64,000 nt of DNA from a virus: IMG/VR virus record IMGVR_UViG_3300019888_000003, positions 14,344-78,343 of that record, one strand, 5' to 3'. Under the pieces are notes generated by a model, which had not been told where the DNA came from, made no database searches, and saw nothing but the letters and a program-made list of their open reading frames with translations. The translations under genes were made by a program, and so were the position numbers. This document shows positions 9,557 through 31,433 of the stretch, piece after piece; positions within the stretch are counted from its first letter, which is position 1; every line of letters starts with the position of its first letter.

Positions 9557-12424
9557 ATGCGTGCCAATGGCCAGAAGGATCTGCTGACTGACCTGAAATT
9601 CGACCCTGTGCAGGCGTTTCGGAGTGGTTTGGACCCGAAACCCCAGTGGGATTCGATCATTGAGTTCGCTACGCACCGATCTTTCTGTGGTCTGCGGCTC
9701 TATCCCCGGCAGATCACGCTGCTGCGTCTGATTTACCTCGAAACCGAGACGATGACGGCCTACGACCTCGACGTGATCGAGCAATGGCGAGAGGGTTTCC
9801 TGAATCACGACTCTCCCGAGGGCGTGCAGACCGACATCTGGGACCGGATTCAGTACCTCAAGGAGCGCGGATACCGGCATTTCCCGCATATCGAGGCGAT
9901 TATCGGGCGACGTGGGTCCAAGGGCAAGATCGGGGGCGTTCTCGGTGCTGAAAAGATGGCATATCTCTACAGTCTGGACGATTGGCAGAGCCATTACGGA
10001 GTGAGCCCCGGCAAGGACGGTTTCCTGTCGGTGGTGGCGGTCAACTCCATCCAGGCCAAGAAGTTTCAGTTCGCGGATATTCGCGAAACGGTCGAGAACT
10101 GCAAATATCTTCAGTCCGCCATTGCCACATCGAACGGCTACGAGGTGGCCTTGCGCACGCCTGCTGATCTGAGGCGAATCGCGTACTTGCACAAGAACAA
10201 AATCCCTATCGAGCACCAAATTGCTTCGCTGCACGCGACGGCGATGTCGTCGAACTCCGCCTCCGGTCGTGGTGCGACGGGATTTGCGAACATCTACGAC
10301 GAGTTCGCCCACATGATCACCAACACCGGAAGCCAGCGGTCGAGCGAGGAAATCTACGAGGCCTATCAGCCCTCCCTCGACCAGTTCGGCAAGGACTCGC
10401 TGACTTACATCCCTTCTTCGCCCTTCTGTCTCAGTCCGGAAACTCCGGTGCTTACCGACGATCTGCGCTGGGTACCAGTTGGATCGTTGCAGGTGGGAGA
10501 CAAGCTGGTCGGCTTCGACGAAGACGCACCAAGCCGAGGTGTAGGCCGACGATGGCAGCAGGCAGAGGTCACCGAAACCTCGGTGATTCGCGCACCCCGC
10601 TACACGATCACGATGTCGAGCGGGCGGCAGATCACCTCGACCAGCGAGCATCGCTGGCTTACGTCGTGGGCATCGCAGAAGTCGCGCTGGGATTGGCGTA
10701 AGACCTCCGAGCTAAAGCCAGGCGACCGCATCAAGTCGATTGGTGTCGATCCGTGGGGCACCGACAACACCCGAGAGGGCGGCTACCTCGCTGGCATTTT
10801 CGACGGCGAGGGGCACCTGTCCGGTCAGGTCGGACGCAACATGACGCTGGGCTTCACGCAGAATCGCGGACCAGTGCGAGAGCGCGTCTACGACCTGTTA
10901 ACCGAGCGCGGCTACAAGGTGCAGGACTACACAGGCGAGTCGTCGCGCATCAGCAAAATGCGAATCGGCGGCTCCGTAGGCGACGTGATGCGCTTCCTCG
11001 GCTCGGTTCGCCCCGAGCGTTTGCTGCCGAAGTTCGGCGACATGTTCTATGGCTCGCGCATCTACGGACCAGCCAGTCAGGCAGTCGAGACTGTGGTTTC
11101 CGTCGAATACAAGGACGAGGGCGACGTGATTGCACTCGGTACCTCGACGGCCACTCTGGTAGCCGATGGCTTGCTCAGCCATAACACTCAGGTCGGACAT
11201 TTCTTTTCCCTCTACAAGGAGGGGAAGGTGCTGATGAGCACCTTCGACAAGGAGACCGGAGAGACGCGGCTGGAGGAGAAGACCGCCAGGGAGCTAGGGC
11301 ACAGTGACGGGGATGCGGAGCGCAAGGTCGTTGAACTTGCTGCCAACCCCGAGATGCTGGTTGTTCAGTTGCCGAGTTGGGGGCTCTACGAGGATTGGCG
11401 CAAGTCGCCCACACTTGGTGGGCCTCTGTTCAAGCGCCCCATTCAGGCCTACGACGAGCGCATGATGCGGCTTGAGCGCAGCAACCCGCAGAAGTTCAAC
11501 GTCGAGCGTCGCAGTCAGTTCGCTTCCGTGGTCGATGCGTTCATGGACCCGCGCAAGGTCGAGGCGATGTTCGATCCGGTGCCCTGGCGAGAGAAGCTGG
11601 TTCCCCAAGATCGCGGACGTGTCGACCGTCGCTACTACGTTCACATCGACCCTGGTCTCACCAACGCCAACTTCGCGCTGGCCATCGCTCACTTGGAGTA
11701 CGCGCCCGTCGACGATTACGGCGACGTGTGGCCACACGTCATTATCGACTTCCTCAAAGTGTGGAAGCCTGGGGACTACGAGGACCACACCATCGACTAC
11801 GTTCAGGTGCAGCGCGAGGTCGCTGCGACTCTGCGTAAGTTCCCCTCCACTCACATTTTCTCCGCAGACCAGTGGAACAGCGCCGGAATGCTGGCGGCGC
11901 TACGCGAGGAGTTCGGTGCGTCTATCCAGATCAAGGAAGAGACGTTCACCGACATCTACAACCAGGAGCGCATGGACCGCATGAAGTCGGCCATCAACCT
12001 GGGTTGGGTGCACAGCTACCGCGACAACTTCTACGGTGACGGTGATTGCCTGTTGGAGTTGGAAATGAAGTTTCTTCAGAAAAAGGGCAAGAAGGTCGAC
12101 AAGCAAGAGTTCGGGCCTGTGACGACCAAAGACCTCTTCGACGCGGTGAACGTCGTAACAGATCGAATGCTCAAGGACGACTTGGACCGCTGGCAGGCGA
12201 AGATGCTGGGCACTGTATCGACGGCCATCGGCAGTTCCAACGTCGCCGGGATTCGCAGTGGGCGGGATCTGGATCGGCTCAATGCACTCAAGTCCGGGGC
12301 TCGAAGACTGCAAGGTCCTATGACTGCTCGGGAGAAGCTGCGTGAACAGACTCGGCAGCGCTCCACCACACACGGCATCGGCGTAGGAGGGGGCACGTCG
12401 CGCCTGCGGGGGATCAGGGGGTAG
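9557..12424 (+). CDS. terL: Terminase large subunit, intein-containing
   Basis: LYPRQ adenine motif, Walker A-like GRRGSKG, Walker B IYDEFAH, and nuclease motifs HIDPG, DQWNS and TKDLFD. Confidence 0.92.
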   Translation: MRANGQKDLLTDLKFDPVQAFRSGLDPKPQWDSIIEFATHRSFCGLRLYPRQITLLRLIYLETETMTAYDLDVIEQWREGFLNHDSPEGVQTDIWDRIQYLKERGYRHFPHIEAIIGRRGSKGKIGGVLGAEKMAYLYSLDDWQSHYGVSPGKDGFLSVVAVNSIQAKKFQFADIRETVENCKYLQSAIATSNGYEVALRTPADLRRIAYLHKNKIPIEHQIASLHATAMSSNSASGRGATGFANIYDEFAHMITNTGSQRSSEEIYEAYQPSLDQFGKDSLTYIPSSPFCLSPETPVLTDDLRWVPVGSLQVGDKLVGFDEDAPSRGVGRRWQQAEVTETSVIRAPRYTITMSSGRQITSTSEHRWLTSWASQKSRWDWRKTSELKPGDRIKSIGVDPWGTDNTREGGYLAGIFDGEGHLSGQVGRNMTLGFTQNRGPVRERVYDLLTERGYKVQDYTGESSRISKMRIGGSVGDVMRFLGSVRPERLLPKFGDMFYGSRIYGPASQAVETVVSVEYKDEGDVIALGTSTATLVADGLLSHNTQVGHFFSLYKEGKVLMSTFDKETGETRLEEKTARELGHSDGDAERKVVELAANPEMLVVQLPSWGLYEDWRKSPTLGGPLFKRPIQAYDERMMRLERSNPQKFNVERRSQFASVVDAFMDPRKVEAMFDPVPWREKLVPQDRGRVDRRYYVHIDPGLTNANFALAIAHLEYAPVDDYGDVWPHVIIDFLKVWKPGDYEDHTIDYVQVQREVAATLRKFPSTHIFSADQWNSAGMLAALREEFGASIQIKEETFTDIYNQERMDRMKSAINLGWVHSYRDNFYGDGDCLLELEMKFLQKKGKKVDKQEFGPVTTKDLFDAVNVVTDRMLKDDLDRWQAKMLGTVSTAIGSSNVAGIRSGRDLDRLNALKSGARRLQGPMTAREKLREQTRQRSTTHGIGVGGGTSRLRGIRG
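10427..11185 (+). mobile_element. Intein (253 aa) with a LAGLIDADG-type endonuclease motif
   Basis: Starts CLSPETPVLT, block B TSEHRW, YLAGIFDGEG, ends LVADGLLSHN followed by Thr. Confidence 0.93.
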
Positions 12425-13849: not shown

Positions 13850-14656
13850 TTGACGATCAACGCCGATTACGAAGAGCTGCTCGATGAGATACTCACTCAC
13901 GGTTCGAGCAAGGGTGATCGCACCGGAACCGGAACTTTCTCGTTGTTTGCGCGACAGCTCCGCTACGACCTTTCCAAGGGATTTCCCCTGATTACCACCA
14001 AGAAAATTTTTACGAAGGCAGTCGTTCACGAGCTGATTTGGTTCTTGTCCGGGGCGACGAATATTAAATATCTCATCGACAACGATGTTCACATCTGGGA
14101 CGACTGGGCTGACAATGACGGTGAGCTGGGTCCGGTCTATGGATATCAGTGGCGGCACTGGGGTCAGGATGACATGGACTGGGAGGGAATCGACCAGATC
14201 GCTGCGCTCATCGAGGGCATTCGCAAGGACCCCGAAGGTCGACGGCACATCGTCACGGCGTGGAATCCCAGCGATCTCTCCCAACAGGCACTTCCGCCGT
14301 GCCATTACGCCTTCCAGTGCTACGTCGCGGACGGCAAGCTGAGTCTGATCATCAATCAGCGCTCGTGTGACATGTTCCTAGGCGTGCCGTTCAACATCGC
14401 CAGCTATGCCCTGCTCACGCACATGATCGCAGCGCAGACCGATCTGGAGGTCGGGGAGTTTGTGTGGAGCGGAGCGGACTGTCACATCTACCTGAATCAT
14501 GTCGCACAGGTGGAGCAGCAGCTCTCGCGCGTGCCCTACCCCTTCCCGACACTGAAGCTAGCGAAGCGAGACAGCATCTTCGACTATCGCTACGAGGACA
14601 TCGTGATCGAGGACTACACGTGCCACCCGGCCATTCGCGCAGAGGTCGCAGTGTAA
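13850..14656 (+). CDS. thyA: Thymidylate synthase
   Basis: [56 protein letters not shown]. Confidence 0.97.
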
Positions 14657-18005: not shown

Positions 18006-18509
18006 ATGTCCTACGGAGTTGCGGGGAAGATGTCAGATTTATTTTATGCTGCTGTACGTTCGGATGAGTTCCGGGAAGCGTGCCGTCAGCGAATGTTGGG
18101 CTCGGTGCAATCGGAAGCAACTTGCTCCAGGCGCTCGGTCGCGATGACGGGTGTGGGGGCTGGTACCCGTTCCGATAACCAGACGCCTGCGACTGGTTCA
18201 TACGTCGTGCGCACGAGCGGCTATCGAATGCTCACGCAACAAGAAGGTCATCCGCTGGCCAGTAAGAGCGGTTGTGTGTATGAGCACCGCAAGGTTCTCT
18301 ACGAGCGAATTGGGCCAGGCCCTCATCCATGTCACTGGTGTAGCAGGCTATTGGAGTGGGGCGGAGTCAAGGGAATCATTTCCGACCACTTGAACGACGA
18401 CAAGCTGGACAACAGATCTGAGAATCTGGTACCTGCCTGTAACAGATGCAACGTGAGGCGCTCCCTCGGATTGCCAATCATCGTGATGGAGAGGGAAGTT
18501 CATGCCTGA
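18006..18509 (+). CDS. HNH homing endonuclease
   Basis: GY...HPLA...VYEHRKVL, CHWC, DHLNDDKLDNRSENLVPACNRCN. Confidence 0.9.
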   Translation: MSYGVAGKMSDLFYAAVRSDEFREACRQRMLGSVQSEATCSRRSVAMTGVGAGTRSDNQTPATGSYVVRTSGYRMLTQQEGHPLASKSGCVYEHRKVLYERIGPGPHPCHWCSRLLEWGGVKGIISDHLNDDKLDNRSENLVPACNRCNVRRSLGLPIIVMEREVHA

Positions 18510-19950
18510 TTACGGAATTTTCGAGGCAGCCAGCTCGGACGGTTTGGAGCAGCACAACAGTCGTCGGCAGGCGGAACGCGCCCTGGACGAGGCCGTCTTC
18601 GCGGCGCGGGAGCAGTTCGGATCGTTTTTGGGTGCGGCGACGAACAAGCAGGATTTCGAGGACCGACTGGCGCTGGTCAAGCCGGAGTTGATGAGTACGG
18701 TCGAGGCGCACCTCCTGCCGGTGACCGGAGTGATGCGGCGCGTGTCGCGGGCGCTGAGGCCGGATTTTCGTAGCAAGCAGGCTGCTGATTATGACGAAGA
18801 CTGGGACACTTCGAGTCCTGATTCTCGTGAACCCGATGACGAGGTAGAAGATCCGCGCGGCGATGACTACATGCCGAACTATCAGCGTGATGGGTCTCGC
18901 CGCAAGCAGGCCGACGACCGGGGCACCGATTCCGACACCGGAGCAATTCCTGCACCCGACGATATGAGTGCCGATCCCGCAGCGGGCGGCGGAGACCCCA
19001 CGCCTGGTGCAGACGATGGTTCTGCTGATGTGCAGCAGTCAGTGGCGCGCCACAGGGAATCTGGTGCCGTGGACGACGCTCCCGAGTTGATTCCGAAGGG
19101 CGACTTCGATTCGTACCTCGACGACGTATCCGATCCCGATGTCGAGAAGATCAAGACTCGCAACTTCGAGCCTGCCGATGTGCCACCACTCAAGGCTGGT
19201 AGGGAGAAGACCGCTGTCGACGCCGAGGGCTTGGATGACGCCACGCTGCTGCGGATGTGGCAGGCCATGCAGGACCTGTTCGGCACCGGAGCCATTCCCG
19301 ACAGCTCGGTGGGCGATGCAGCAGCAGTGGGCGCGGAGATGACTAGGCGTGGTCTTGCGTCGAAGAAGTCCGAGTCTCGCCGCAAGCAGGCCGGTGACGA
19401 TGATGTCTTTATCACACCGGAGAGTGTCGTCGAGGACTTCAAGGGTTGGCTCGAAGGGCGATCAGCAGATTACGATACGTACGACGAGTGGATGGACACC
19501 TATGAATACGCCGATCAGGTAGGCGAATCCGAGGATCGTGCCATTGTCGATTACATCGACCGCACTGCATCGCGCAAGACGGCTGGCTTCCAGGAATGGT
19601 GCGAAGAGAACGATGTCGATCCAGAGGCCTCGGGCTCTTACGACCAGTACGCAATTTCACAGCAGAAATCTTCCAACAAGAAAATCGCTTCTGGCTTCTC
19701 TCCCGAGGAGTTGGATGAGATGAAGGGCTGGGCGTACAGCTTCGGGTTCGTCTCGGACTCGATGATCGACAATCTTTCAGCCGAGGACACCATCGCCATC
19801 ATCAAGCGTGATTACCCCGGTGGATTGATTGCATGGCAACAGGATGCGAGCACATCCGATGCCGATCTTCCATCGGAGCCGAATGCTGAGCCGAACGACT
19901 TGGGTGCTGATTCAGGAGTCCCTGCGGGGGTTCCTTCTGGGGCATTCTGA
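18502..19950 (+). CDS. Acidic modular head-associated protein
   Basis: Conserved-looking N-terminal domain, then acidic modules separated by RRKQA, EKTA, RKTA and KKIA motifs. Confidence 0.7.
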   Translation: MPDYGIFEAASSDGLEQHNSRRQAERALDEAVFAAREQFGSFLGAATNKQDFEDRLALVKPELMSTVEAHLLPVTGVMRRVSRALRPDFRSKQAADYDEDWDTSSPDSREPDDEVEDPRGDDYMPNYQRDGSRRKQADDRGTDSDTGAIPAPDDMSADPAAGGGDPTPGADDGSADVQQSVARHRESGAVDDAPELIPKGDFDSYLDDVSDPDVEKIKTRNFEPADVPPLKAGREKTAVDAEGLDDATLLRMWQAMQDLFGTGAIPDSSVGDAAAVGAEMTRRGLASKKSESRRKQAGDDDVFITPESVVEDFKGWLEGRSADYDTYDEWMDTYEYADQVGESEDRAIVDYIDRTASRKTAGFQEWCEENDVDPEASGSYDQYAISQQKSSNKKIASGFSPEELDEMKGWAYSFGFVSDSMIDNLSAEDTIAIIKRDYPGGLIAWQQDASTSDADLPSEPNAEPNDLGADSGVPAGVPSGAF

Positions 19951-20654
19951 TGTCTCTGCATTGGAACACCGATATCGTCCGGCACTCCCTGTTACGGTCG
20001 GCGAATCTTCCTGGCGGTATCGAGCGACTGGGAATTTCCTACGAAGGTCGTGAATTGGCGAAGTTGGTCAGTCGATTCAAAGTCTGGTGCGGGCGAAACG
20101 GCATCGACTTCACCACAGTGCGTGAAGACCGGGACGAGACAGTCGTGTATCGCTATTTTGCAGACGCTGATCTCGATGTGCAGGACGAGCGCGCGATGGA
20201 GGAGTGGATCAACGATCCTGAGTACCCCATCACGAGTATGCGCAAGGGTGCGCCCTTCGCGGATTACGCTGACTTCGATGCGTGCGTCGCTGCCAACCAG
20301 GACAAAGATTCGCCCGAGGCATATTGCGGGACCATCCAGCGGAATGTTGAGGGTGCCGGTATCTCCTCTCGCAAGCGCACCGCCTCGATGTGGGATGAGA
20401 TGGACGCTTCAGCTCCGCGTCATGTCGTAGCGGGCTGGGATTGGGACGAACGGCTCTCGGGTTACGTGACCGATGCCACCTCTGCTCACTTTGCGTGTCT
20501 CTGCGGGGCTAATGTCGAAGCGCCTGGCTATAACACCTGCGTCTGTGGGAAGGTGTGGAATAGCTATCCCATTCAAGCCAACGGCACGACGAAGGTCATT
20601 TGCCGGGAGATTCCCGTTCGCGACCTCTTGCTCGCCTCTAGGAGTTCGCCATGA
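19950..20654 (+). CDS. Modular head-associated protein with C-terminal Cys-rich (zinc) domain
   Basis: PFADYADFDACV...AYCG module; C-terminal CLCG...CVCGKVWN; RKGA and KRTA linkers. Confidence 0.7.
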   Translation: MSLHWNTDIVRHSLLRSANLPGGIERLGISYEGRELAKLVSRFKVWCGRNGIDFTTVREDRDETVVYRYFADADLDVQDERAMEEWINDPEYPITSMRKGAPFADYADFDACVAANQDKDSPEAYCGTIQRNVEGAGISSRKRTASMWDEMDASAPRHVVAGWDWDERLSGYVTDATSAHFACLCGANVEAPGYNTCVCGKVWNSYPIQANGTTKVICREIPVRDLLLASRSSP

Positions 20655-20755
20655 TCTACGGAATCCCCTTCTCGGATATTATTTCTGGTGGGAAGGCAGT
20701 GCTCACCTTGCTCGACATCGCCTATCGGGTTGCTCATTCCTTCGGCATAGTCTGA
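20651..20755 (+). CDS. Very small hypothetical protein (34 aa)
   Basis: AGGAG RBS, ATGA overlap with the upstream gene; fills the gap before 20761. Confidence 0.4.
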   Translation: MIYGIPFSDIISGGKAVLTLLDIAYRVAHSFGIV

Positions 20756-20760
20756 ACGCT

Positions 20761-21111
20761 ATGAGCGAGGTGTGCTGGTGTGGCCACAGACGTGCGGTGA
20801 TGTATCAGGACTCGATCACTCAGCGCGGTTACTGCACCGTCTGCGCGGCTTCGGAGATCACGTCCACCCAGAACGTTCACCTGCAATTTCTCAGTGACCT
20901 CATGCAATACGAGGTCGGTGAGCGCGTCGAGTGCTGGACGATGGGTGAGTTCTACGAGGGCTTCGGTGAGGTAAAAGAAATCTCGACCGAACTGAGGGAC
21001 GGCGGGACGCCGGTACATCCCGCCTATCTCGTTCAGATAGACGACCGAGAGGGACCGTTGTGGTTCACTCCTATCTGTCTCAAGAGAGCGAGGAGTGAGG
21101 TCAATGGCTGA
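20761..21111 (+). CDS. Hypothetical protein (CxC...CxxC plus SH3-like domain)
   Basis: 3' part of the 20473 ORF; YEVGERVECW...GEVKEI...YLVQID pattern. Confidence 0.6.
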   Translation: MSEVCWCGHRRAVMYQDSITQRGYCTVCAASEITSTQNVHLQFLSDLMQYEVGERVECWTMGEFYEGFGEVKEISTELRDGGTPVHPAYLVQIDDREGPLWFTPICLKRARSEVNG

Positions 21112-21538
21112 GACCGTGCGCCAGATTGCCCCCTATCCCTATCCCTTGGCCGATCTCATCGCACAACTGACCTACAAGCGGAACTGGACCTTCGCGCTGG
21201 ATGACATGGACCGTGGACAGGGCAGCAGAGGTTTGACACTCAATGTGCTGATCTACACTCCTGACAGCTATCACCCAGATCAGACACGTGGGGTACGGCA
21301 CTTCTTCATCGTCCCGGCAGCCGCGTACGACATTCGCTCTTGGCGTCGGTGGTTGTTCGATCGCATCTTGGACATCGAGACGCACGAGGCGATGGAGTTC
21401 TTCAAGCTGGACGGTGTGCGCGCTTATGCGCCTTCACACGGTCCGGGAAATGATCCCTACTTGATTCGAGAAGTGGGCACCGACGAGGACGTGCGAACGT
21501 CGTTCCGTGGCGAGCTGAAGGATGAGACGGTTGGCTGA
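21104..21538 (+). CDS. Hypothetical phage protein
   Basis: GAGG RBS; HFFIVP...WLFDRILDIETHEAMEFF motif. Confidence 0.7.
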   Translation: MAETVRQIAPYPYPLADLIAQLTYKRNWTFALDDMDRGQGSRGLTLNVLIYTPDSYHPDQTRGVRHFFIVPAAAYDIRSWRRWLFDRILDIETHEAMEFFKLDGVRAYAPSHGPGNDPYLIREVGTDEDVRTSFRGELKDETVG

Positions 21539-24032
21539 CATCCAGATCACCGACAAGCGCGGACACCGTGGAGACGTCAGTCTGTCAAAGACCGTCGCGA
21601 ACCTGCGGGCACGTGGGTTCTCTCTTCCCAATTCCCCGCCGATGGCGCGTCAGGCCGCCTCCGATGTAAAGACGGCGGTGGCCAATCGCACGCTGACGGA
21701 TTCCATGCGTCACACCGGCTCCAATGTGCAGATGGCGTTGCCCAAGGTGCGCGAGCCGATGTCCAGCTTCAAGGACAAGGGCATCCCCTTCGATACGACC
21801 AAACCCAAGGAGTTGCGCGAAATTCGCAAGTGGGCGCGGCTGTTCTATTCGACTCACGACCTCATTCCACTGATGATCGACATCTACTCCAAGTTTCCTC
21901 TGGTCGGCATGGAGTTCACCAGCAAGGACCCCAAGATCAAAGAGTTCTACGAGTCGATGTACTTGGACAACTTGGATTACGACACGTTCCTTCAGGATGT
22001 GGGGCGTGAGTATTTTATCTCCGGCGAGGTCAACACGTTGGGGCACTTCGACGAGACGCTGGGTATCTGGAGCGCCGAGGAGGTGCTCAATCCCGACACC
22101 ATCTCCGTCAGCAAGTCGATGTTCGTGCAGCGCGAGCGGGTGCAGTTGCTCGTCAAGGATCTGGTCGAGGTATTGCGCTCCGGGACGGAGACGGGAGGGG
22201 AGGACGGGCCCACGCGCTCCGAGCAACTGGAAAAGCGTTGGGAATACGAACAATTGGTGCAGAACTACCCCGAGATTCTTCAGGCGGCAGCCAACGACGA
22301 CGGGTTGGACATCGCGGACGCGCTCATCAGCCGCATCGTCAACAAGGTGCAGCCCTGGGATTTGCGGGGCACGCCACATCTGTTGCGCAGCTTTCGCACG
22401 CTGCTCATGGAGGAGTCCCTCAATGCGGCACAGGACGCAGTAGCCGATCGGCTTTACAGCCCGTTCATCCTCGCCACCTTGGGCATCGCCAACCTGGGCG
22501 ACAACGAACCCTGGATTCCTGATCAGGGTGACTTGGATGCGTGCCGTGACGACATGCAGAATGCTCTCGCCGCCGATTTTCGGCTGATGGTGCACAACTT
22601 CGGCCTGGACATCAAATCGGTTTTCGGACGAGAAGCCGTGCCGCGCTTCGACTCCGACTACAGCCGTGTGGACAAGAAGCTCATGCAGGCGTGGGGTATC
22701 GGTGAAGCGCTCATCTCTGGTGGCACTGGCAACACCTACGCCAGCTCCGCGCTCAACCGTGAGTTCGTCACGCAGATCATGGTCACCTTCCAAAAGGCGA
22801 TCAAGCGTCACATGCGCAAGCGCAGCGAGGTGATCGCGGAGGCACAGGGTCACTACGACTACGAGATGAGCGGCAGTATTCGTAAGCCCATCTTCCGCGA
22901 GATCGTGGAGACCGATCCAGAGACCGGCGAGGAGTACACCCGCAAGGTACCCAAGCTGTTGATTCCCGAGGTCAAGTTCCAGTCGCTCAACCTGCGCGAC
23001 GAGGCGCAGGAGCGCAGCTTCCTCCAGGCGCTCAGGAGCCAGGGCGTGCCGATTTCAGACATGAGCCTGGCAGTGAACATTCCCATCGAGTTCGAGGACG
23101 AGCTGGAAAAGCAATCCGAGGAGAAGGTCAAGAAGCTCATCGCCGAGGCTCAGGCCATGCAGGCAGCCTTTCATGCGTGCTCAGCGCAGGGACTTCCGAT
23201 TCCGCCTGATATCGCCCGCTACTACGCAGCGGGCGCGCAACTCACCAAGGAAGTGGCCGACGCTGGGATCGAGAAGGACAAGGGCGACGTGCTCAAGGAC
23301 ACCGGCACCATTCCCGGTGAAGAGCCTGCCACCAATATCGTGGCTCCCGGAGTGCCCGGTGTACCAGGTTCTCCTTCCGGTGGTGGGGCCCCGAGCGGCA
23401 ACGGCTTCGGTGGTGGGCCTCCCGGCGGTCCCGCTGATAACGGCACCCCCGATTCCAAGGGCATGGACTCCAAGGGTGGCGATCTCGGCGTCGACCTCGA
23501 CAACGGTATCGCCAACGATCAACTCGACAACTCCAAGCCCGATGTACCCGGCGCGCCGCCGATCAACGTTCCAGTGGATGGTGAGGGGAGCAACGACGAT
23601 AACGTCCTGCCCTTCAAACCCAAACTGCCGCAGCGTAATCGCACCCGTCCGGAGGAGAGCGACGAGATGCGCAAGCACTCGCCTCGCAAGGGGAGCTTCG
23701 GTCAGGGACCCTCCTCCTATGGGTCTTCGGAGCGAGTGTCCGAACGCGAAATCGAATCGGCGCTCAAGCGACTGTCTTCTCCTGTGCAGACCGTGCGGGA
23801 CCTGGTGGAGAACGACGAATTCTTCGTTTCGCTCAATCGGCAGTCCTACACCGATCAGATCCGTGCCGACATCGACAGCATCTATCCCAACTTGGAAATC
23901 AGAGGTGACGGGTCGGCGGTGCTGACCATGACGAAGCGGGCTGCGAGCGATGGGACGGACGAGTCGTTCACGGTGCTGTGCGAGATGATTGAGCAGCACG
24001 AGGAGGTCTACGGTTTCCGTCCCGAGTGGTAA
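21531..24032 (+). CDS. Portal protein
   Basis: WARLFYSTHDLIPLMIDIYSKFP, RGTPHLLRSFRTL and AQDAVADRLYSP resemble Bxz1-type portals; position in the head module; Pro/Gly-rich tail. Confidence 0.82.
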   Translation: MADIQITDKRGHRGDVSLSKTVANLRARGFSLPNSPPMARQAASDVKTAVANRTLTDSMRHTGSNVQMALPKVREPMSSFKDKGIPFDTTKPKELREIRKWARLFYSTHDLIPLMIDIYSKFPLVGMEFTSKDPKIKEFYESMYLDNLDYDTFLQDVGREYFISGEVNTLGHFDETLGIWSAEEVLNPDTISVSKSMFVQRERVQLLVKDLVEVLRSGTETGGEDGPTRSEQLEKRWEYEQLVQNYPEILQAAANDDGLDIADALISRIVNKVQPWDLRGTPHLLRSFRTLLMEESLNAAQDAVADRLYSPFILATLGIANLGDNEPWIPDQGDLDACRDDMQNALAADFRLMVHNFGLDIKSVFGREAVPRFDSDYSRVDKKLMQAWGIGEALISGGTGNTYASSALNREFVTQIMVTFQKAIKRHMRKRSEVIAEAQGHYDYEMSGSIRKPIFREIVETDPETGEEYTRKVPKLLIPEVKFQSLNLRDEAQERSFLQALRSQGVPISDMSLAVNIPIEFEDELEKQSEEKVKKLIAEAQAMQAAFHACSAQGLPIPPDIARYYAAGAQLTKEVADAGIEKDKGDVLKDTGTIPGEEPATNIVAPGVPGVPGSPSGGGAPSGNGFGGGPPGGPADNGTPDSKGMDSKGGDLGVDLDNGIANDQLDNSKPDVPGAPPINVPVDGEGSNDDNVLPFKPKLPQRNRTRPEESDEMRKHSPRKGSFGQGPSSYGSSERVSEREIESALKRLSSPVQTVRDLVENDEFFVSLNRQSYTDQIRADIDSIYPNLEIRGDGSAVLTMTKRAASDGTDESFTVLCEMIEQHEEVYGFRPEW

Positions 24033-24113
24033 GCGATTGTGCGGGAGTGCTGTATTCGACCACTGGGAGAGGACATAACAAGTAGATGCCGATGATGATT
24101 CGAGGAGAACCAC

Positions 24114-26324
24114 ATGTCTCAGCGCGTGATGACCGAGTTCGGTCCCGGCGTGGTTGTGGCGACGGAGACAGTCCGTGGTCGAACTCAACATCGAGTCGAG
24201 GGTGAGCATTTCAATATCTGGGTGAGTGCGGCGCAGTACAGCCCTTTCGGGCAGTTGGAATGGGATCAGGGTCTTCCACAGCTTCAGGACAACTCCACGA
24301 CGTTGCCCTACAACCCACAGCCACAGTTCTATCCGCACGGTGGCGAGTCGACGATTCAGCCCAATCAGCATCTCGACACTCAGAAGCGGCTCTCTCCCGC
24401 CGACTCGGTGAGCTTCGAGCCAAGGAGCCTTCCCGGTTCTGGCTCGCGCGACTTTGCCAGTTCTCGACGCACGGCGGGAGACTCCGAAATCGGGTTCGAC
24501 GACAACGATGTGATCCAATTCGTGTCGCAGACCATAGACCAGTACGGCGATGGTGACTCCGGTGACACCCAGAGCGATTGGGAGGAACTGAAGGCAGGGA
24601 TGGACTACGACGAGTTGAACGGGCTCGTCAAGGACGCCTATCAGAACGGCGTGCTGAGCCAGATCAATTCGAGCCGGATGCTCTGGGACCTGGAAGCCGA
24701 CGCGGGTATGGGCAGCTCGTTCTATTCCCATGTCACGGCGACCGACGAGAGTGGCGCTGCCGATACCCAGGTGGATCAGTCCTATTCCCCGACATCCACG
24801 GACGAGGACTACCCCGGAGGGATCAACGTCCCTGACGACCACGAGGTCCCAGAGAACTTCGCTCTGGGCAGTGTGGCAGATACCCAGGCACGGCTCGGAG
24901 AGAAATATATCGACATTCCGGTCGACGTAGACCGCAGTACGCTCCAGGCCCGTCTCGATGACGATCCTGTTCGAGTTGTGTCGGATATAAAAATGCGGAA
25001 CTTCGAGGTTCGCGCGAACCTCGATCCCCGCATCGGTCAGGCTCTGGACCTGGAGGCAGCGGACTCCGTTATTCGCACGGCAGCATGGGCCGATGTACGG
25101 GCTAAGGCGACACGTCTGCGTCGTTCCGGGGCTGTACAGCTCGAAGCGGCCAATCCGACCGCTATCGTGGCGACAGTGACGGGGGATCACGGTGTCTACA
25201 CAGTCGCAGTCCTGCGTGGCAGTGCATTGACCGGAAATTCCTCGGTATCGGAGTGGAGCTGCTCCTGCCCCTGGGGGGATTGGGCCTTCGAACGCGAACA
25301 TACCTACGTCGGGCGGCTGTGCAGCCACGCCTATGCGGCCCTTCAGGAGTTGCGGTCATTGACGATGCGCAAGGAGAAGCCTCGCGACTGGTCGCATAAG
25401 GCTCAGCGCAAAACTGCTGGTGACTGGGACGACGATTGGTCCGAGCCGGGGGAGGGGTACTCCGATACCTTCGGTGACCCGTACACGGCGCTGCTGGACT
25501 TTCAGGGGTGGGCCTACGCGGTAGGCAAACCTGCCGACGAGGCAACGCTGGCCGAATGGGCCGCGCCGAACGGTGCCGCAACCGCGAACCCCAGCGAGGC
25601 AGACCTCGCTTACATTCGCAAGGACATCGCGGGCGAGGGCGACAGCACGTGGCAGTACAACGGTGCCCGTCATCAGGACCCCGACGCAGACCTGGCGACC
25701 AAGCCTGGAACCCTGACACCGGATCTGATGTTCGTGCCGAAGACGCACGAGCGTCGGCGGGTGGACTTGGGTGCCGACACTGGCAATTGGCGTACCTATG
25801 CCCGCGAAGCAGGCTGGGACTTGGGTGAGGTCGAGGCACTGGTCAAGCACGCCATTCAGCCGGGAGGTCTGAGCTGGGAGGAGGTCGACGAATTGCTTCA
25901 GCAGTGCAAGGCCAACGGTACCGATCTCGGTGATGTCTACGACCGGGTGGCGTTTCTGTCCGAGCCCTTCGAGGGCTCCGGCTCCAATCAGCCGGACGGC
26001 TACGAGTCCAGCGAGAGCTACGTCGACAGCCACGAACTCCAGTATCGCGACGATATTGACGGGCCGGGGCTCAACCCTGCTGCACAGAACGCCGACGATG
26101 TGGTGCTATCCAACAGCCACGAGGCCGCTCTTGGCTATTTGCTGGAGAACAACGATTCTTCTGGTTCCAGTGATATAGCCGATGCCGCTGCTGCGTTCCT
26201 TCAGCGCACGGCGGGTCGGAGTTTCACCCTGTCCGAACAGCAGGAGTTGATGGACGAGGACGCGGTTGGTGGTCCCATCGAGGCGTCGGATCTGGATCTA
26301 CGCGGAACTCACTACCTGTCGTGA
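24114..26324 (+). CDS. SWIM zinc-finger-containing modular head protein
   Basis: WSCSCPWG...RLCSHAYA (CxC...CxH SWIM signature); modules flanked by RRTA, RKTA and QRTA. Confidence 0.75.
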   Translation: MSQRVMTEFGPGVVVATETVRGRTQHRVEGEHFNIWVSAAQYSPFGQLEWDQGLPQLQDNSTTLPYNPQPQFYPHGGESTIQPNQHLDTQKRLSPADSVSFEPRSLPGSGSRDFASSRRTAGDSEIGFDDNDVIQFVSQTIDQYGDGDSGDTQSDWEELKAGMDYDELNGLVKDAYQNGVLSQINSSRMLWDLEADAGMGSSFYSHVTATDESGAADTQVDQSYSPTSTDEDYPGGINVPDDHEVPENFALGSVADTQARLGEKYIDIPVDVDRSTLQARLDDDPVRVVSDIKMRNFEVRANLDPRIGQALDLEAADSVIRTAAWADVRAKATRLRRSGAVQLEAANPTAIVATVTGDHGVYTVAVLRGSALTGNSSVSEWSCSCPWGDWAFEREHTYVGRLCSHAYAALQELRSLTMRKEKPRDWSHKAQRKTAGDWDDDWSEPGEGYSDTFGDPYTALLDFQGWAYAVGKPADEATLAEWAAPNGAATANPSEADLAYIRKDIAGEGDSTWQYNGARHQDPDADLATKPGTLTPDLMFVPKTHERRRVDLGADTGNWRTYAREAGWDLGEVEALVKHAIQPGGLSWEEVDELLQQCKANGTDLGDVYDRVAFLSEPFEGSGSNQPDGYESSESYVDSHELQYRDDIDGPGLNPAAQNADDVVLSNSHEAALGYLLENNDSSGSSDIADAAAAFLQRTAGRSFTLSEQQELMDEDAVGGPIEASDLDLRGTHYLS

Positions 26325-26375
26325 CCTGTGGAAGGTCGTGTGTTGTAGCGACAAGAAGTGTAGGAAGGGGATCGC

Positions 26376-29300
26376 GTGAGCTTGAACAAGATCGCTGAGC
26401 TGTACGACGGCGAAGACGGATCGGTCAAGCAATCTGCCAGCACCATTCAGGGCGCTGTCGATCTCGTAGCACAGTGGCAGTCGTTCCCAGATACCGCGAT
26501 CCTGGCCGATTTCACTCCACGCGAGGGCTATATCTACACGGTGACGCGCGCTATCTCTGCACGTGTCAACCAGAACTTCGACGGGTTTCCCTCCGAGGAG
26601 TTGCACAAGAGCTACGCCTCGTTCCTGGGCAAGCCGTGTTTCGTCAACCACGCCAACCACGACCCGCAGCGTGCTCGTGGACGAGTGGTGGCTGCCAGAT
26701 ACGTCGAGAACGGTCTGGACAAATACGTCGATGTCATTCAGGAGATCAGTGCCGTCAAATATCCGAAGCTTGCCAAAGAGCTTCTGGACGGTGGCCTGGA
26801 TTCGGTGTCGATGGGGTGTGAGGCGCAACGAACGATCTGTTCGTTCTGTGGCAACGAGGCCACAGGCATGTTCGATATGTGCGCCCACATACTCAACGCC
26901 AAGGGACGCTACCTTCGCCGTAAGGCCGCCAACGGTGGCATGGAGGACGTGCTCGTCTACGAGGAGTGCCGCGATCTCAGTTTCTTCGAGCTGAGCTACG
27001 TGTTCGATCCCGCCGACGAGACGGCTGTGGTGTCGACGGTGCTCACGGCTAATCGCAAGACAGCGTTCCCCAAGACCCAGAAATGTAAATTTTGCGCTGA
27101 CCATGCCACCCAGCGCGTGATTCATTCCGAGGGTATGGCTTATGTCCCGGCGTGTGACAAGCACTTGACGAAGGCCAGGAACGCTGCCGCGAGTTGCACT
27201 CCGGACGGCAGTCACGACGAATCCAACATCGACCGTGTGGAAGCAATTGCCAAGCACGCCAAGCTTATTCAGCGCGTGTGGTGTGATCTTCCGGGCTGTC
27301 GCCGCTGGACCGTCTACAACTCCGACACATACAACGAGTGGGTCAACGGTCACGGTGAGCTGCGCACCTACGACTACTGCTGTGAGGGACATCGCCAGCA
27401 GTACGAGGATCAATACCCCAGTTGGGCGTTCGAGGCGCGCATTCGCAATCCGCACAAGGCGCAAGCAATGGAGAAGCACGGCTTCGGAGAGGTAGAAGCG
27501 CCCACTCCTGTGGATACGTTGCGTGACGAGTCCGAGGACGAGAAGGACGATTTCCATCGTTACGTCGAATCCCCTCCCGAGCTGAACGAGCCGGATCTGG
27601 ATGCCGCCGGGGAGATCGACCGTCGTCAGGAGATGCCCGAGGGATTCGAGAACTTCGACGACGAGGTGTTCGACACCGTCGACGAAGGGGTGAGCCCCGA
27701 TGCCACTGCGCCGGATGCTCCTGGTGAGCTACCCGGTGTCCCTCCGGGGTCCCCTGGTGGTGTGGGCACCCCTCCGACCATCCCCCGTCCCGGACCAGGA
27801 GAAGCACCGCTGGGCGACGTGCCAGGTGAGAATGCTGCACCGCTGCCTGGCGAAGAAGCATTGCCCAGTGCCGATGCGTTGCCGGGTGTGCCCGAGGACG
27901 TGATGGAAGACCCCGGTGACGCCGAGGAGGAGATTCACCCCGAGATTTTGGAGCTGGACGGTGTCACTCCCGAGAGCACCCCTCCTGAAGACATTCCCGA
28001 CGAGGTAGCCCCTGAGGTGGCACCCGTAGGTCCTGCACCTGAGGATGCCGTTCCTGTCGACGAGGTGATGCAGGACCCCGGTGATCCCTCACCCCCCGTT
28101 CCGGGTGTGGATGCCCCGACGCCCAAGGACATCGTGCCCGCCGACGACGTGTCCGACGATGTCCCGGTCGCTCCTGTCGAGCCACCTGTACCGCCCGTTG
28201 CGGAAGAGGCACCCCAGCCCGACACTGCGGACACCCCAGATGTTCCTGTCGACCCCACCGACACGGTGGACCCCAAGACTCCGGCGACTCCGGCTGTGCC
28301 ACCTACGCCGGATGTCGATGACGATGTGATGAAAGATCCCGGCGATGCCTCTCCCGATGCACCCGGCGATGCTCCCCCTGATGTCTCTCCCGAGGTGCCG
28401 CCCGAGGACGTGCACCCCGAGATAGAGCAGCTCGAACTTCTGCCGGGGGTAGTGCCTCCGCCAGAACCCGAGTCCGACGAACAACATCGTTCTGAGGACG
28501 ACTCCCGAAGTAATGAACAGAGCACGACCCCCACGAAAGGACGACGCAACATGGGAACCAACTCTCTGGCAGAGCGCGGGAGGGTTGCTTCCCGTGGCCG
28601 CGTAGCCGATCAGAGCCGTAATGACCAGGGTGAGAAGGAAGACACCTTCATCACCCAGACCCCACCCCCGGAGCCTGTGGTCGCGCCCAACGAGGACGGG
28701 CCGATCTCCAACACCGAAGAGAACTTGGTGGCAAGCATTCGTGCTCGCCAACGGGCGCTCAAGGAATTGCGCGCCAAGAAGGCTCGTCGCAAGCAGGCCG
28801 ATGAGACCGCTGACGTCGTGAACCCGGAACTCTCGGGCACAGGCGATCAGGATCTCAAGGGCGACTTCGAATCCGCCGATCCCGATGACGGTGTCGAAGA
28901 GACTCAGCCCAAGGACGCTGCTCGTCACGCAGCGCTTGTCAAGCGCTATCGCCATTTCTCGGCGTGGTGCCGTGCGACGCAGGGCAAGTCCATCCGCGAA
29001 GCTCGTCATGCGGGAGAGCTGCGCCGTTGGGCTCGCAGCTATGCCGGAGAGTTCAAGATCGACCCGGCGACCATTTATCCGATGCTCAGTCGCGACATGA
29101 CGGCACTACGCAAGAAGGCAGCCGATGAAGGTGTGTCGGCTCCCGTCAAAGCCGATCCCGCCGCCGTGAAAGACGAGATCACGTCGTCCACGCGCAAGAC
29201 TGCCGGGGACGATGATCTGCCGGACTTCCTCAAGGATGACGAGGACAAGAAGGAATCTCGTCGCAAGCAGTCCGGTGAAGTTCCCGATGCCTTCAAGGAT

Positions 29301-29891
29301 CAGTGGGACAGCGATGATGGAGACGATTCCGGGGACGAGGACGACAAGAAGGAATCGGCTCGCAAGACCGCAGACGACAAGCTGGATGTCGCAGCTCCTG
29401 ACGGTCGCGTCGATGTCGAGGCCCCGACCTCCGACACCACCGACGACGAGGCGCAGGCCTCTCAGTTCGACACCGGAGACTTCGGTGACAATGCCGGAGA
29501 CGATCTCGCCGACCCGGATATGAGTACCGATCAAAACTGGGCACCGGGTGAGGGAAAGAAATCCTCACGTGCCAAGACCGCCACTGGGCTCCAGGCTGTT
29601 CGTCTGGCCGAGGCCTACATCGAGGCGGGATTGGAGCCCAAGGAAGCGCGCTGGAAACTGGCCACATCGTTCCAAGAGATGAGCCAGCCGATCGTGCTGG
29701 ACCGTATTGCCCTTCTGGAACGCGTCGCAGCTGTGCGCGTTACGGAGAGGAAGACTGCCGGAGTTCGCGGGTCTTCACGCATCACCAACGCTGTACCCGC
29801 CAATTTGGGACGCCAGACTGCCACCACCATGCCGCGCGAAGCGGCCAACGGTGCTGGTGTCGGCAATCCCGATTCCGACATGTTCCTCTGA
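26376..29891 (+). CDS. Capsid maturation protease fused to cargo modules and scaffold
   Basis: SARVNQNFDGF, FVNHANHD, VSMGC...CSFC and FFELSYVFDPADETA form the protease domain; then two Cys-rich inserts, an acidic Pro-rich linker and a scaffold-like C-terminus; lies directly before the decoration and capsid genes. Confidence 0.82.
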   Translation: MSLNKIAELYDGEDGSVKQSASTIQGAVDLVAQWQSFPDTAILADFTPREGYIYTVTRAISARVNQNFDGFPSEELHKSYASFLGKPCFVNHANHDPQRARGRVVAARYVENGLDKYVDVIQEISAVKYPKLAKELLDGGLDSVSMGCEAQRTICSFCGNEATGMFDMCAHILNAKGRYLRRKAANGGMEDVLVYEECRDLSFFELSYVFDPADETAVVSTVLTANRKTAFPKTQKCKFCADHATQRVIHSEGMAYVPACDKHLTKARNAAASCTPDGSHDESNIDRVEAIAKHAKLIQRVWCDLPGCRRWTVYNSDTYNEWVNGHGELRTYDYCCEGHRQQYEDQYPSWAFEARIRNPHKAQAMEKHGFGEVEAPTPVDTLRDESEDEKDDFHRYVESPPELNEPDLDAAGEIDRRQEMPEGFENFDDEVFDTVDEGVSPDATAPDAPGELPGVPPGSPGGVGTPPTIPRPGPGEAPLGDVPGENAAPLPGEEALPSADALPGVPEDVMEDPGDAEEEIHPEILELDGVTPESTPPEDIPDEVAPEVAPVGPAPEDAVPVDEVMQDPGDPSPPVPGVDAPTPKDIVPADDVSDDVPVAPVEPPVPPVAEEAPQPDTADTPDVPVDPTDTVDPKTPATPAVPPTPDVDDDVMKDPGDASPDAPGDAPPDVSPEVPPEDVHPEIEQLELLPGVVPPPEPESDEQHRSEDDSRSNEQSTTPTKGRRNMGTNSLAERGRVASRGRVADQSRNDQGEKEDTFITQTPPPEPVVAPNEDGPISNTEENLVASIRARQRALKELRAKKARRKQADETADVVNPELSGTGDQDLKGDFESADPDDGVEETQPKDAARHAALVKRYRHFSAWCRATQGKSIREARHAGELRRWARSYAGEFKIDPATIYPMLSRDMTALRKKAADEGVSAPVKADPAAVKDEITSSTRKTAGDDDLPDFLKDDEDKKESRRKQSGEVPDAFKDQWDSDDGDDSGDEDDKKESARKTADDKLDVAAPDGRVDVEAPTSDTTDDEAQASQFDTGDFGDNAGDDLADPDMSTDQNWAPGEGKKSSRAKTATGLQAVRLAEAYIEAGLEPKEARWKLATSFQEMSQPIVLDRIALLERVAAVRVTERKTAGVRGSSRITNAVPANLGRQTATTMPREAANGAGVGNPDSDMFL

Positions 29892-29917
29892 TCATCAGAA
29901 GGGAAGTGAAATAGACC

Positions 29918-30418
29918 ATGTTCAAAGTCCCCCTAAGTAATCCGTCGCTCAAGCGAACCATTCGTCCGCTCTATGCGCAGCATCAGGCAACACCCCAGGG
30001 TGCATTCCTCGACCCCAACTGGGATCGCTCCATCGACATCTACCCCGGCTCGGTCATGACACGATTGACCAAGGAGGTGTTCGGCCTCTACACCGCAGCG
30101 GCGGGACAGAAGCCCTACGGTCTTTCTGCGTTCTTCGTCGCTCCAACGCTTGGCGTGGACGAAGTCATCGACACCGGCTCCAACCTGTTCGCGGTGTGGG
30201 TCGGCAATGCTGACGCACAGTTCGAGATCCTCGCCCCGGCTTTCGACGCCACTGGGGATTGGTCTCTGCCGACGAACGGTTCGATCAAGCTGCTCACCGG
30301 CAGTGCGACCGGACTCCTGACACCTACGGGTGCCACTGCCGCCAATGCCATCGCGGAGTTGATCGACGTCCCGTCAACGGACAAGATCGTCATTCGCCCA
30401 GTCCGCCCAACGGCCTGA
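29918..30418 (+). CDS. Capsid decoration / minor capsid protein
   Basis: KRTIRPLYA...DIYPGSVM; lies between the protease-scaffold and the major capsid gene. Confidence 0.7.
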   Translation: MFKVPLSNPSLKRTIRPLYAQHQATPQGAFLDPNWDRSIDIYPGSVMTRLTKEVFGLYTAAAGQKPYGLSAFFVAPTLGVDEVIDTGSNLFAVWVGNADAQFEILAPAFDATGDWSLPTNGSIKLLTGSATGLLTPTGATAANAIAELIDVPSTDKIVIRPVRPTA

Positions 30419-30434
30419 GAGTAGGAGAAATAAC

Positions 30435-31433
30435 ATGACTACTCTGGTTGCACAGGGCACCGGCCTCGGTCGCTATGCCAAGGCCTCCGACGAGTACGTA
30501 CAGGAAATTGTCGCGCGCAAGACCGCGATGAAGGGCCGTACGCTCACCGCCAGCGAGAAGAAGCAGAAGCTCGCCTCGATCCTCGCGGATCGTCAGAACG
30601 GCATTCTGCGTCTGGGTCAGTCGATGATCGGCCCGATTCAGCTCCAGCTTCGTTACCAGGGCATCCTGCGTAACGTGCTGCTGGAGGACGCACTGACCCC
30701 CGGCGTACCGATCCAGTACGACGTGCTGGACGACCTGGGACAGGCGTACATCTTGCACGGCAACGAGGGTGAAGTGAAGATCACCCCGTTCGAGGGCAAG
30801 CGTGTCGAGGTACGGCTGTTCCGTATCGCGTCCTTCCCCTCGATCAAGAAGGAGGATCTCTACTACCTCCGTTCCAACTTGGTCGAGTACGCCCAGGACA
30901 TGACCAAGCAGGCCATCATGCGGCAGGAGGACGGCAGGCTTGTCACTCTGATCGAGGCTGCTGCTGCTGCTTATCGTCTGGTGGACGCCACTGCCGGATT
31001 GGGTGGTTCGCTGCCCAACGAGATCACGATCACCGGCACCACGCTGATGCCCGACGATCTCTACACCGCTGTGACTTACACCGATACCCGCCAGTTGGAC
31101 AGCTCGCGGCTCCTGTGTCACCCACAGGAATACCGCGACTTCTATCGGTGGGACATCAACACGACTGGTTGGGCCTTCAAGGATTCCATCGTGGCGGGCG
31201 AGAAGGTCGTCCAGTTCGGTGAGTTCCAGATCGGCAAGTCGATCATGATTCCGCGTGGCACCGTCTACCTCACCCCGGAGCCGCAGTTCTTGGGCGTGTT
31301 CCCGGTGATGTACAGCCTGGACGTGGAGGAGAACCCCCAGGTCGAGCAGTTCCACAAGGGCTGGGTGATGGACGAGTTGGTTGGAATGGCGATCCTCAAC
31401 CCCAGGGGCATCGTCATACTTCGGAAGGCGTGA
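30435..31433 (+). CDS. Major capsid protein
   Basis: GQSMIGPIQLQLRYQGILRNVL, AIMRQED and GWVMDELVGMAILNPRG; strong codon bias; followed by a terminator. Confidence 0.9.
   Translation: MTTLVAQGTGLGRYAKASDEYVQEIVARKTAMKGRTLTASEKKQKLASILADRQNGILRLGQSMIGPIQLQLRYQGILRNVLLEDALTPGVPIQYDVLDDLGQAYILHGNEGEVKITPFEGKRVEVRLFRIASFPSIKKEDLYYLRSNLVEYAQDMTKQAIMRQEDGRLVTLIEAAAAAYRLVDATAGLGGSLPNEITITGTTLMPDDLYTAVTYTDTRQLDSSRLLCHPQEYRDFYRWDINTTGWAFKDSIVAGEKVVQFGEFQIGKSIMIPRGTVYLTPEPQFLGVFPVMYSLDVEENPQVEQFHKGWVMDELVGMAILNPRGIVILRKA

Follow-up and report, generated by a model that had tools for sequence, protein, structure and literature searches.

Processing of many head proteins by one protease is textbook knowledge for phage T4 and for phiKZ and SPN3US. 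In T4, gp21 (MEROPS S77) processes gp22, gp23, gp24, gp67, gp68, IPI-III and Alt at (L/I)-x-Glu. The herpesvirus assemblins cut at (V/L/I)-x-Ala↓Ser (the arrow marks the scissile bond, here and below), and their precursors are ordered protease, R-site, scaffold, M-site and tail. The proteases phiKZ gp175 and SPN3US gp245 (S/A/G-x-Glu) cut many head and ejection proteins (PMC5694885, PMC10052503, PMC7411985). Here we describe the head genes of a 64,000-nucleotide stretch of viral DNA (the window) that covers positions 14,344 to 78,343 of the IMG/VR record IMGVR_UViG_3300019888_000003. Four of these genes, 18502, 19950, 24114 and 26376, encode proteins that we call A, A2, B and C, and all four contain a recurring peptide, [KR]-[TQ]-A, or more loosely basic-x-small. 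We propose that this peptide is probably the recognition signal of the assemblin-like protease encoded by 26376. The four genes are as follows.

18502-19950, plus strand: protein A, 482 residues, acidic, net charge −56
19950-20654, plus strand: protein A2, 234 residues, acidic
24114-26324, plus strand: protein B, 736 residues, net charge −69, with a SWIM zinc-finger
26376-29891: protein C (gene 26376), 1171 residues, acidic

The motif was counted over the four proteins (2623 residues in total), with 2000 whole-protein shuffles serving as the control. The preliminary description of this DNA had reported that a basic-x-A motif recurs in these genes, and the recurrence is real: [KR].A was found 50 times where 27.9 ± 4.8 occurrences were expected. 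As a consensus, however, [KR]-x-A is too loose, being enriched merely about 1.8-fold; the sharp core is [KR]-[TQ]-A, often with an extra basic residue at P4. The core [KR][TQ]A was observed 18 times versus 2.5 expected, [KR][KR][TQ]A 12 times versus 0.24, and [KR][KR][TQ]A[GD] 9 times versus 0.05, and for none of the four patterns was the observed count reached in any of the 2000 shuffles. RKTA is also the most frequent 4-mer in the four proteins, a result for which the pattern was not chosen beforehand. When residues were shuffled only within blocks of 8-20 positions, so that the local composition was kept, the enrichment persisted (for example, [KR][KR][TQ]A 12 versus about 0.5). In the four genes the counts of A[TQ][KR] and A.[KR][KR], the motifs read backwards, lie at expectation, which shows that the signal is an ordered, directional peptide. 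Two further features ascribed to the motif hold in part. It was said to be followed usually by G or D, which is true of 11 of 21 sites, leaving about half with other residues, and to separate acidic modules of 25-80 residues, which fits 18502 and the C-terminal third of 26376 but not 24114, where the segments run from 36 to 265 residues.

The motif is largely confined to the head genes. Among the listed open reading frames (ORFs) of the window, 22 of the 38 matches to [KR][TQ]A fall inside the head cluster (18502-31433), and 4 of the 16 outside it come from one overlapping pair of alternative ORFs, 55083 and 55305. The 14 kb upstream of the window contribute just 4 more matches, giving 22 of 42 in a head cluster that accounts for about one fifth of the coding residues of the contig. 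Hardly any match lies in the cement gene or in genes for tail, lysis or early functions. The head-versus-other comparison that had been proposed thus came out in favor of a head-specific motif, while two genes outside the cluster that had been named as carriers drop out: 33764 lacks [KR][TQ]A altogether, and the status of 55305 as an ORF is ambiguous.

We compared five annotated or viral-contig relatives, namely Stormageddon, Finch, E3, Cane17 and one metagenomic viral contig. The motif is enriched in the counterparts of A, B and C in all five (z 3-10); in the cement and capsid proteins of the five it is not, and their portal proteins are at expectation. The relatives that carry it infect Gordonia, Rhodococcus and Mycobacterium, and the top 4-mers of Stormageddon and Finch again contain RTA or KTA (RTAG/RRTA and KTAG/RKTA). 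At the level of families, with no pattern chosen beforehand, RR.A ranks first among the recurrent gapped words of 60 non-redundant C homologues (258 versus 42 expected), with RTA and RK.A next, and RTA ranks first among the recurrent tripeptides of 51 B homologues (134 versus 15 expected). Against local shuffles, [KR][TQ]A occurs family-wide 367 versus 109 times in C and 199 versus 41 times in B, and the reversed controls are at expectation (97 versus 108 in C, 42 versus 41 in B). For the C family, counts of the looser [KR][KR].A are partly confounded by enrichment of the reversed pattern, probably owing to Arg/Ala-rich helices, and we therefore took [KR][TQ]A as the core. Across the 51-60 homologues, motif sites keep their position at module joints within sequence that cannot otherwise be aligned. 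The best independent replicate is Bacillus phage G, which has a Firmicute host and a G+C content of 30%: [KR][TQ]A occurs 14 times versus 3.4 expected in gp2-gp21, as opposed to 2 versus 3.1 in gp22-gp65.

One could envision that the motif is a functionless by-product of duplication or recombination of a linker cassette at the level of DNA. The top direct-repeat family of the region (D1) does encode S-R-R-K-Q-A-[GD], in 6 copies with 69-83% identity to the reference copy, and one exact 20-mer occurs at two places in 18502. Most copies, however, encode the same residues by different codons (ACC, ACG, ACT and ACA for Thr, all four Ala codons and five Arg codons), which argues for selection on the peptide. 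The positions are kept in homologues that lack DNA similarity, relatives retain the motif at aligned joints, it recurs in phage G at 30% G+C, and the reversed motif is not enriched. We regard a by-product of this kind as very improbable.

If the motif is a protease signal, then the question is which protease reads it. The assignment of a prohead protease to 26376, made in the preliminary description, is well supported.

26439-27002, plus strand: prohead serine protease domain of gene 26376, residues 22-209, modeled with a predicted local distance difference test score (pLDDT) of about 90

In an AlphaFold2 model of C built on 60 homologues, residues 23-211 best match T4 gp21 (5jbl; Z 8.2, root-mean-square deviation 3.1 Å over 125 residues, VIA-align). 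The next matches are the herpesvirus assemblins (varicella-zoster virus, pseudorabies virus, herpes simplex virus, Kaposi's sarcoma-associated herpesvirus and human cytomegalovirus) at Z 4.5-6; Foldseek alone, given the full-length model, reached an E value of 0.05 only. The domain is 37% identical to gp19 of phage G (E 3e-32) and matches phrog_18299, "head maturation protease" (E 6e-17). A sequence search of the PDB with the protease-scaffold protein returned nothing useful, whether one sequence or a profile built from 60 served as the query, and no Pfam model exists for the domain. GenBank already annotates gp13 of Stormageddon as a protease. Residues H92, S145, H171, E196 and D214 are invariant in the 60 homologues, and the catalytic residues are likely His92 and Ser145, judging from this conservation; their 53-residue spacing presumably resembles that of T4 gp21. 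A second invariant group, C155/C158/C169/H171 (26838-26890), is present in 60 of 60 homologues and in phage G gp19, and its pattern suggests a structural zinc site. We know of no such site in T4 gp21 or the herpes assemblins.

The capsid protein offers a link between this protease family and the only cut measured in the lineage. N-terminal sequencing has shown that the phage G capsid protein gp27 is shortened from 282 to 255 residues, or from 31.2 to 28.2 kDa (PMC5646251, Table 1). Only a cut after GRVALA27↓QAM fits these figures (computed mass 28,170 Da). The phage G capsid protein is homologous to that of the window, in which three positions are of interest.

30435-31433: major capsid protein
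30609-30617, plus strand: predicted capsid maturation site R59-L60-G61↓Q62, aligned with the phage G cut
30471-30527, plus strand: the earlier-noted capsid sites GRYA15↓K and RKTA31↓M, inside a putative propeptide of 61 residues

At the aligned cut position, 90 family representatives have A or G at P1 in 81 cases, L, I or V at P2 in 79, K or R at P3 in 51 and Arg at P5 in 39. Maturation of the window's capsid protein at G61↓Q62 is likely on the basis of this alignment, and R59-L60-G61↓Q62 is invariant in four close relatives. As judged from the family alignment, the repeated motif and the phage G site share a small P1 and a basic P3 and differ at P2. Of the two N-terminal sites to which the preliminary description had drawn attention, GRYA is conserved, R13 and A15 being invariant in four close phages. 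RKTA31 was considered as the maturation site and rejected, because it is not conserved and reads RKQK, RRSK or AKQR in the relatives.

An alternative that dispenses with cleavage is that the motif is a binding or targeting patch, for example a set of basic anchors by which the acidic core proteins would be held to DNA, to the portal or to the interior of the capsid. In these strongly acidic proteins, basic residues are indeed clustered in the motif, the best conserved copies, [KR]TAG(x)R, adjoin conserved C-terminal tails that resemble docking peptides, and one copy (IRTA323 of B) lies inside a helix. A patch of this kind, however, leaves several observations unexplained: the invariant small residue after the basic ones, the strict directionality, the match at P1 and P3 to the measured cleavage position, and the co-inheritance with one protease family across hosts of 30-65% G+C. 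We therefore consider it quite improbable and return to the cleavage signal, for which the positions of the sites within the proteins are informative.

Protein C contains eight strict sites, with P1 at residues 20, 230, 808, 943, 966, 999, 1069 and 1128, and in the AlphaFold2 model all eight lie in low-confidence linkers or no more than 4 residues from the end of a helix; the placement of the two RGRVA sites of the scaffold part is of the same kind. Beyond the protease, the model shows two moderate Cys/His modules (residues 257-350), about 400 disordered residues that are acidic and rich in proline and then, in the C-terminal half, a helix (781-807), two helical domains (845-918 and 1065-1125) and a disordered tail. 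The segments and candidate sites of C that matter for the argument are given below; single numbers mark the end of the P1 codon.

27054-27065, plus strand: N-R-K-T-A230↓F, release-type site directly after the protease domain, in a low-confidence linker
27066-27470, plus strand: variable insert of about 135 residues, two Cys/His-rich modules, pLDDT 56-71, absent from most homologues
28551-29891, plus strand: scaffold-like C-terminal part, 446 residues
28589, plus strand: RGRVA738↓S, in the scaffold part, first half of RGRVA↓SRGRVA↓D (residues 734-745), a pair that ranks with the best conserved sites
28607, plus strand: RGRVA744↓D, second half of this pair; R742, A744 and D745 are present in 48, 49 and 55 of 60 homologues, respectively
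28799, plus strand: RRKQA808↓D, at the end of helix 781-807
29204, plus strand: RKTA943↓G, in the scaffold part
29273, plus strand: RRKQS966↓G, in the scaffold part
29372, plus strand: ARKTA999↓DDKLDV, residues 997-999 kept in 88%
29582, plus strand: AKTA1069↓T, before helix 1071-1083
29759, plus strand: ERKTA1128↓G, maturation-type site after helix 1104-1124 and before the C-terminal tail

The protein thus reads, at the level of sequence and model, as protease, RKTA230, helical scaffold, RKTA1128 and a 43-residue tail finishing DSDMFL, all in one reading frame. A [KR][TQ][AS] site lies within the last 70 residues in 53 of the 60 homologues, mostly as KTAG.RG. The scaffold part may be translated separately as well: M726 is present in 41 of 60 homologues, in a region otherwise little conserved, and its ATG is preceded by GAAAGGA, which ends 9 nt before it (28534-28553); these features together make an in-frame start at this codon plausible. 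The idea that these genes encode polyproteins releasing many small peptides fits 18502 and the scaffold half of 26376, whereas 26376 as a whole is better called an assemblin-like protease-scaffold fusion than a cargo polyprotein.

Column-wise conservation in the C alignment (5388 columns) under-reports sites in variable regions, and anchored offsets and local contexts were used instead. Precisely at RKTA230 the number of homologues that cover C falls from 59 to 16, to rise again at GFGEVEAP (residue 369). In many homologues the sequence [KR][KR]x[AG]↓[FY]GE(V/T)EAP stands at the same offset, uninterrupted by other sequence, from which it follows that the 135-residue insert of the window directly follows RKTA230. 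In further homologues the gene has L5_gp82, DUF7249, HEAT, intein, NlpC/P60 or methyltransferase domains instead. The earlier suggestion that modules come and go between motif sites is supported to the extent that variable passengers stand beside such sites. In four homologues of the protease-scaffold and SWIM proteins from outside the window (P0070, P0112, P0120 and P0147), intein, NlpC/P60, methyltransferase-like or LysM domains were seen between the conserved ends.

These passengers bear on a further explanation, namely that the four genes encode cargo polyproteins whose cleaved modules are kept in the capsid, injected as effectors and swapped between cut sites. Apart from the variation of passenger domains among the protease-scaffold homologues (L5_gp82, DUF7249, HEAT, NlpC/P60 and methyltransferase), it would account for the LysM domain in some homologues of B, for the Cys/His insert that begins exactly at RKTA230, for the order of the SWIM domain, conserved site and unalignable sequence in B, and for the short DNA segment common to 18502 and 26376 (D5 and D6, see below); passengers that bind or hydrolyze the cell wall (LysM, NlpC/P60) would also make sense as ejected proteins. 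On the other hand, our analysis gave no sign of virion retention or ejection, and most pieces between sites are acidic and predicted to be disordered, as is typical of expelled scaffold or core material. The proteins of the window have no recognizable enzyme or toxin domain, only the SWIM and Cys/His modules. The injected effectors postulated earlier are unsupported. The cargo explanation, moreover, presupposes cleavage. Taken whole, it appears rather doubtful to us; that modules are retained in the capsid and injected is doubtful at best; and a loading platform formed by the essential protease-scaffold gene and the core genes next to it, in which foreign domains inserted beside [KR]-[TQ]-Ala sites (Cys/His modules here, and NlpC/P60, LysM, methyltransferase, HEAT or L5-gp82-like domains in relatives) enter the prohead, are cut free by the assemblin-like protease, kept in the capsid and ejected with the DNA, seems unlikely; it would amount to a modular virion cargo system of actinobacteriophages in which cleavage sites provide the code.

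In protein B, which has an N-terminal beta domain (residues 1-40) and the SWIM zinc-finger domain (about 260-430), the candidate cleavage sites are these.

24476, plus strand: RRTA121↓G, preceding a helix
25082, plus strand: IRTA323↓AW, within a confidently modeled helix
25418, plus strand: QRKTA435↓GD, directly after the SWIM domain and leading into unalignable sequence
26213, plus strand: QRTA↓GR, preceding a conserved C-terminal tail of 36 residues (26214-26321)

Three of the four lie in low-confidence linkers or at helix ends in the AlphaFold2 model. R432, K433, T434 and [AS]435 of the third site are kept in 28-43 of the 51 homologues, and [RK]698-T-A-G-R702 of the last in 49-50 of 51. In both protein B (26214-26321) and protein C (29760-29888), [KR]-T-A-G-(x)-R introduces a conserved C-terminal tail, 36-43 residues long, which reads ...AEQQxLxDE...LDLxGTHY in B and ...IPxNL...DSDxF in C. 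The tails may serve for docking to the capsid or portal and be removed once assembly is complete.

Protein A bears the densest load of the motif, with 12 matches versus 1.0 ± 1.0 expected (z 11). Its sites, given by the end of the P1 codon, would yield pieces of 5-101 residues.

18573, plus strand: RRQA↓E
18783, plus strand: SKQA↓A
18912, plus strand: RRKQA↓D
19215, plus strand: EKTA↓V
19392, plus strand: RRKQA↓G
19569, plus strand: DRTA↓S
19584, plus strand: RKTA↓G
19689, plus strand: KKIA↓S

The N-terminus of A matches phrog_2922. A homologue search with the 18502 protein returned only itself and one partial match, and BLAST against the positional counterparts in relatives gave no similarity. 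Genes 18502 (19096-19144) and 26376 (28857-28890) share two DNA segments in the same order, 17 nt at 94% and 15 nt at 93% identity; both (families D5 and D6) encode K-G-D-F-[DE]-S...D-P-D. This hints, from the sequence, that protein A took over a piece of the scaffold region of 26376. The stop codon of A overlaps the start codon of A2 as TGATG (19948-19952), the two being in different frames. Because parts corresponding to A and A2 form one gene in Stormageddon (712 residues) and in Finch (526 residues), the arrangement in the window would represent either a split gene with translational coupling or two frames joined by a frameshift. Two sites are found in A2.

20252, plus strand: RKGA↓P
20384, plus strand: SRKRTA↓SMW, directly before a conserved Cys-rich C-terminal domain

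The second of these (RKRTA↓SMW) is paralleled by SKRKTA↓SMW in Finch and by GSRRTA↓GSL in Stormageddon.

The portal protein had also been listed among the carriers of the motif, a claim that holds in a weaker form.

21522-24032: portal protein
21639-21677, plus strand: candidate sites ARQA↓A (P1 residue 45) and VKTA↓V (P1 residue 52) in an N-terminal leader, upstream of the conserved core

The leader sites are only partly conserved across five phages, and the enrichment is weak in the window (5 versus 1.5, z 2.7) and absent from four relatives.

Taken together, the directional motif, its confinement to the head core, the varied codons, the conserved joints, the protease fold and the placement in linkers support cleavage of the motif by the 26376 protease. 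The protease would cut inside the prohead after a small residue (Ala, sometimes Gly or Ser), with a preference for Thr or Gln at P2, or Leu, Ile or Val in the capsid protein, and for Arg or Lys at P3 and often at P4 too. It would free itself from the scaffold at RKTA230↓F, while the scaffold half of 26376 and the acidic 18502, 19950 and 24114 proteins would be chopped at joints between folded parts, and the conserved C-terminal tails of 24114 and 26376 would be detached, ERKTA1128↓G acting as a maturation-type site. The capsid protein would be trimmed at the predicted G61↓Q62 and the portal leader possibly trimmed as well. Most of the acidic pieces would then exit the shell, making room for DNA. 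Our data show the motif statistics and conservation, the protease fold and the position of sites in linkers, and the one measured cut, in phage G, comes from the literature; cutting of the motif, the persistence of particular pieces in the virion and an internal start of translation at M726 are inferred. The proposal of the preliminary description that the motif is the signature of the 26376 protease is thus retained as probable: the motif is directional, is conserved at joints and agrees at P1 and P3 with a measured cut, and the cleavage itself belongs to what we infer.

Several points weigh against cleavage. The phage G site reads A-L-A↓Q and so shares P1 alone with the RKTA form, and P2 in the capsid proteins is hydrophobic rather than Thr or Gln. 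In a crude count, the post-protease site of C was present in 34 of 60 homologues versus 27 of 60 in reversed segments, which is not significant, and sites in the first 30 residues of C did no better than the reversed-segment control in a crude presence test. IRTA323↓AW of B, inside a helix that is confident in the model, may be structural rather than cut. Low pLDDT is no proof of disorder, and polar basic motifs are likelier in linkers anyway. The homologues are related by descent, so that the family-wide z-scores are inflated and their independence overstated. Finally, an incomplete literature search gave no proteomic, N-terminal or cleavage data for this phage or for Bxz1, Myrna, E3 or related actinophages; the same search turned up no description of a basic-x-Ala code for these phages, and we found no published consensus for the phage G protease.

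The window (about 59% G+C) contains the head-assembly module of a large actinobacteriophage myovirus. The module spans 18.5-31.4 kb and is ordered A, A2, two small ORFs, portal, B, C, cement protein and major capsid protein.

29918-30418: cement protein, PF23968

The large terminase and an HNH gene are located upstream. The terminase ORF (9557-12424) encodes 955 residues, of which the PHROG terminase profile matches, in its best stretch, residues 11-254 only; an insert, for instance an intein, may interrupt it. Among annotated phages, the nearest relatives are Stormageddon (Gordonia), Finch and E3 (both Rhodococcus) and the mycobacteriophages of cluster C, to whose counterparts protein C is about 50% identical. 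The gene order portal, B, protease-scaffold, cement and capsid is also found in Stormageddon, Finch and Cane17.

If the proposed cleavage is true, head proteases of the phage G and Bxz1 type would gain a defined specificity, basic P3/P4 and small P1, which differs from the cut-after-Glu rule of T4 and phiKZ and is closer to that of herpesvirus assemblin. The herpes-like layout of protease, R-site, scaffold and M-site would then be known from a group of bacteriophages as well. For hundreds of actinobacteriophages, some of them used in teaching collections and considered for therapy, the sequence would serve to predict the mature virion proteins and the N-terminus of the mature capsid protein, and passenger domains that are candidates for packaged proteins would be flagged.

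How does this locus compare with the systems described above? T4 gp21 is the best structural match of the C protease, and in both phages the genes lie between portal and capsid. In T4, as is predicted here, a single enzyme recognizes a short consensus both in trimming the capsid protein and in cutting up a set of acidic core or scaffold proteins. In contrast to T4, the predicted specificity is basic-x-small and not a cut after Glu, the protease is fused to the scaffold, and the candidate targeting tails are C-terminal rather than N-terminal. As in phiKZ and SPN3US, many head proteins share one motif; there, propeptides are removed and some products are internal or ejected. The motif differs, however, the capsid is much smaller and has no inner body, and retention and ejection have been demonstrated in phiKZ and SPN3US only. 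In phage G, gp19 is a true homologue of the C protease (37% identity), the capsid proteins are homologous too, and the head module is enriched for the motif. There, gp19 is a stand-alone protein of 300 residues and the capsid site is A-L-A↓Q. The layout of C is also like that of lambda C/Nu3, in a looser sense. The architecture of C parallels that of herpesvirus pUL26/pUL26.5 (assemblin, MEROPS S21). The protease is of the same fold class (Z 4.5-6), the order of protease, site, linker, scaffold, site and short C-terminal tail is the same, a nested in-frame scaffold start is plausible in 26376 too, and Ala is at P1 in assemblin sites as it is predicted to be here. Unlike the herpesvirus precursor, to which C has no detectable sequence similarity, the phage sites are basic and not hydrophobic at P3/P4 and have mostly Gly, Asp or Ser at P1'. 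The phage also has many more candidate sites, distributed over four proteins, and an extra invariant Cys3-His cluster in a protease whose cleavage of these sites is predicted.

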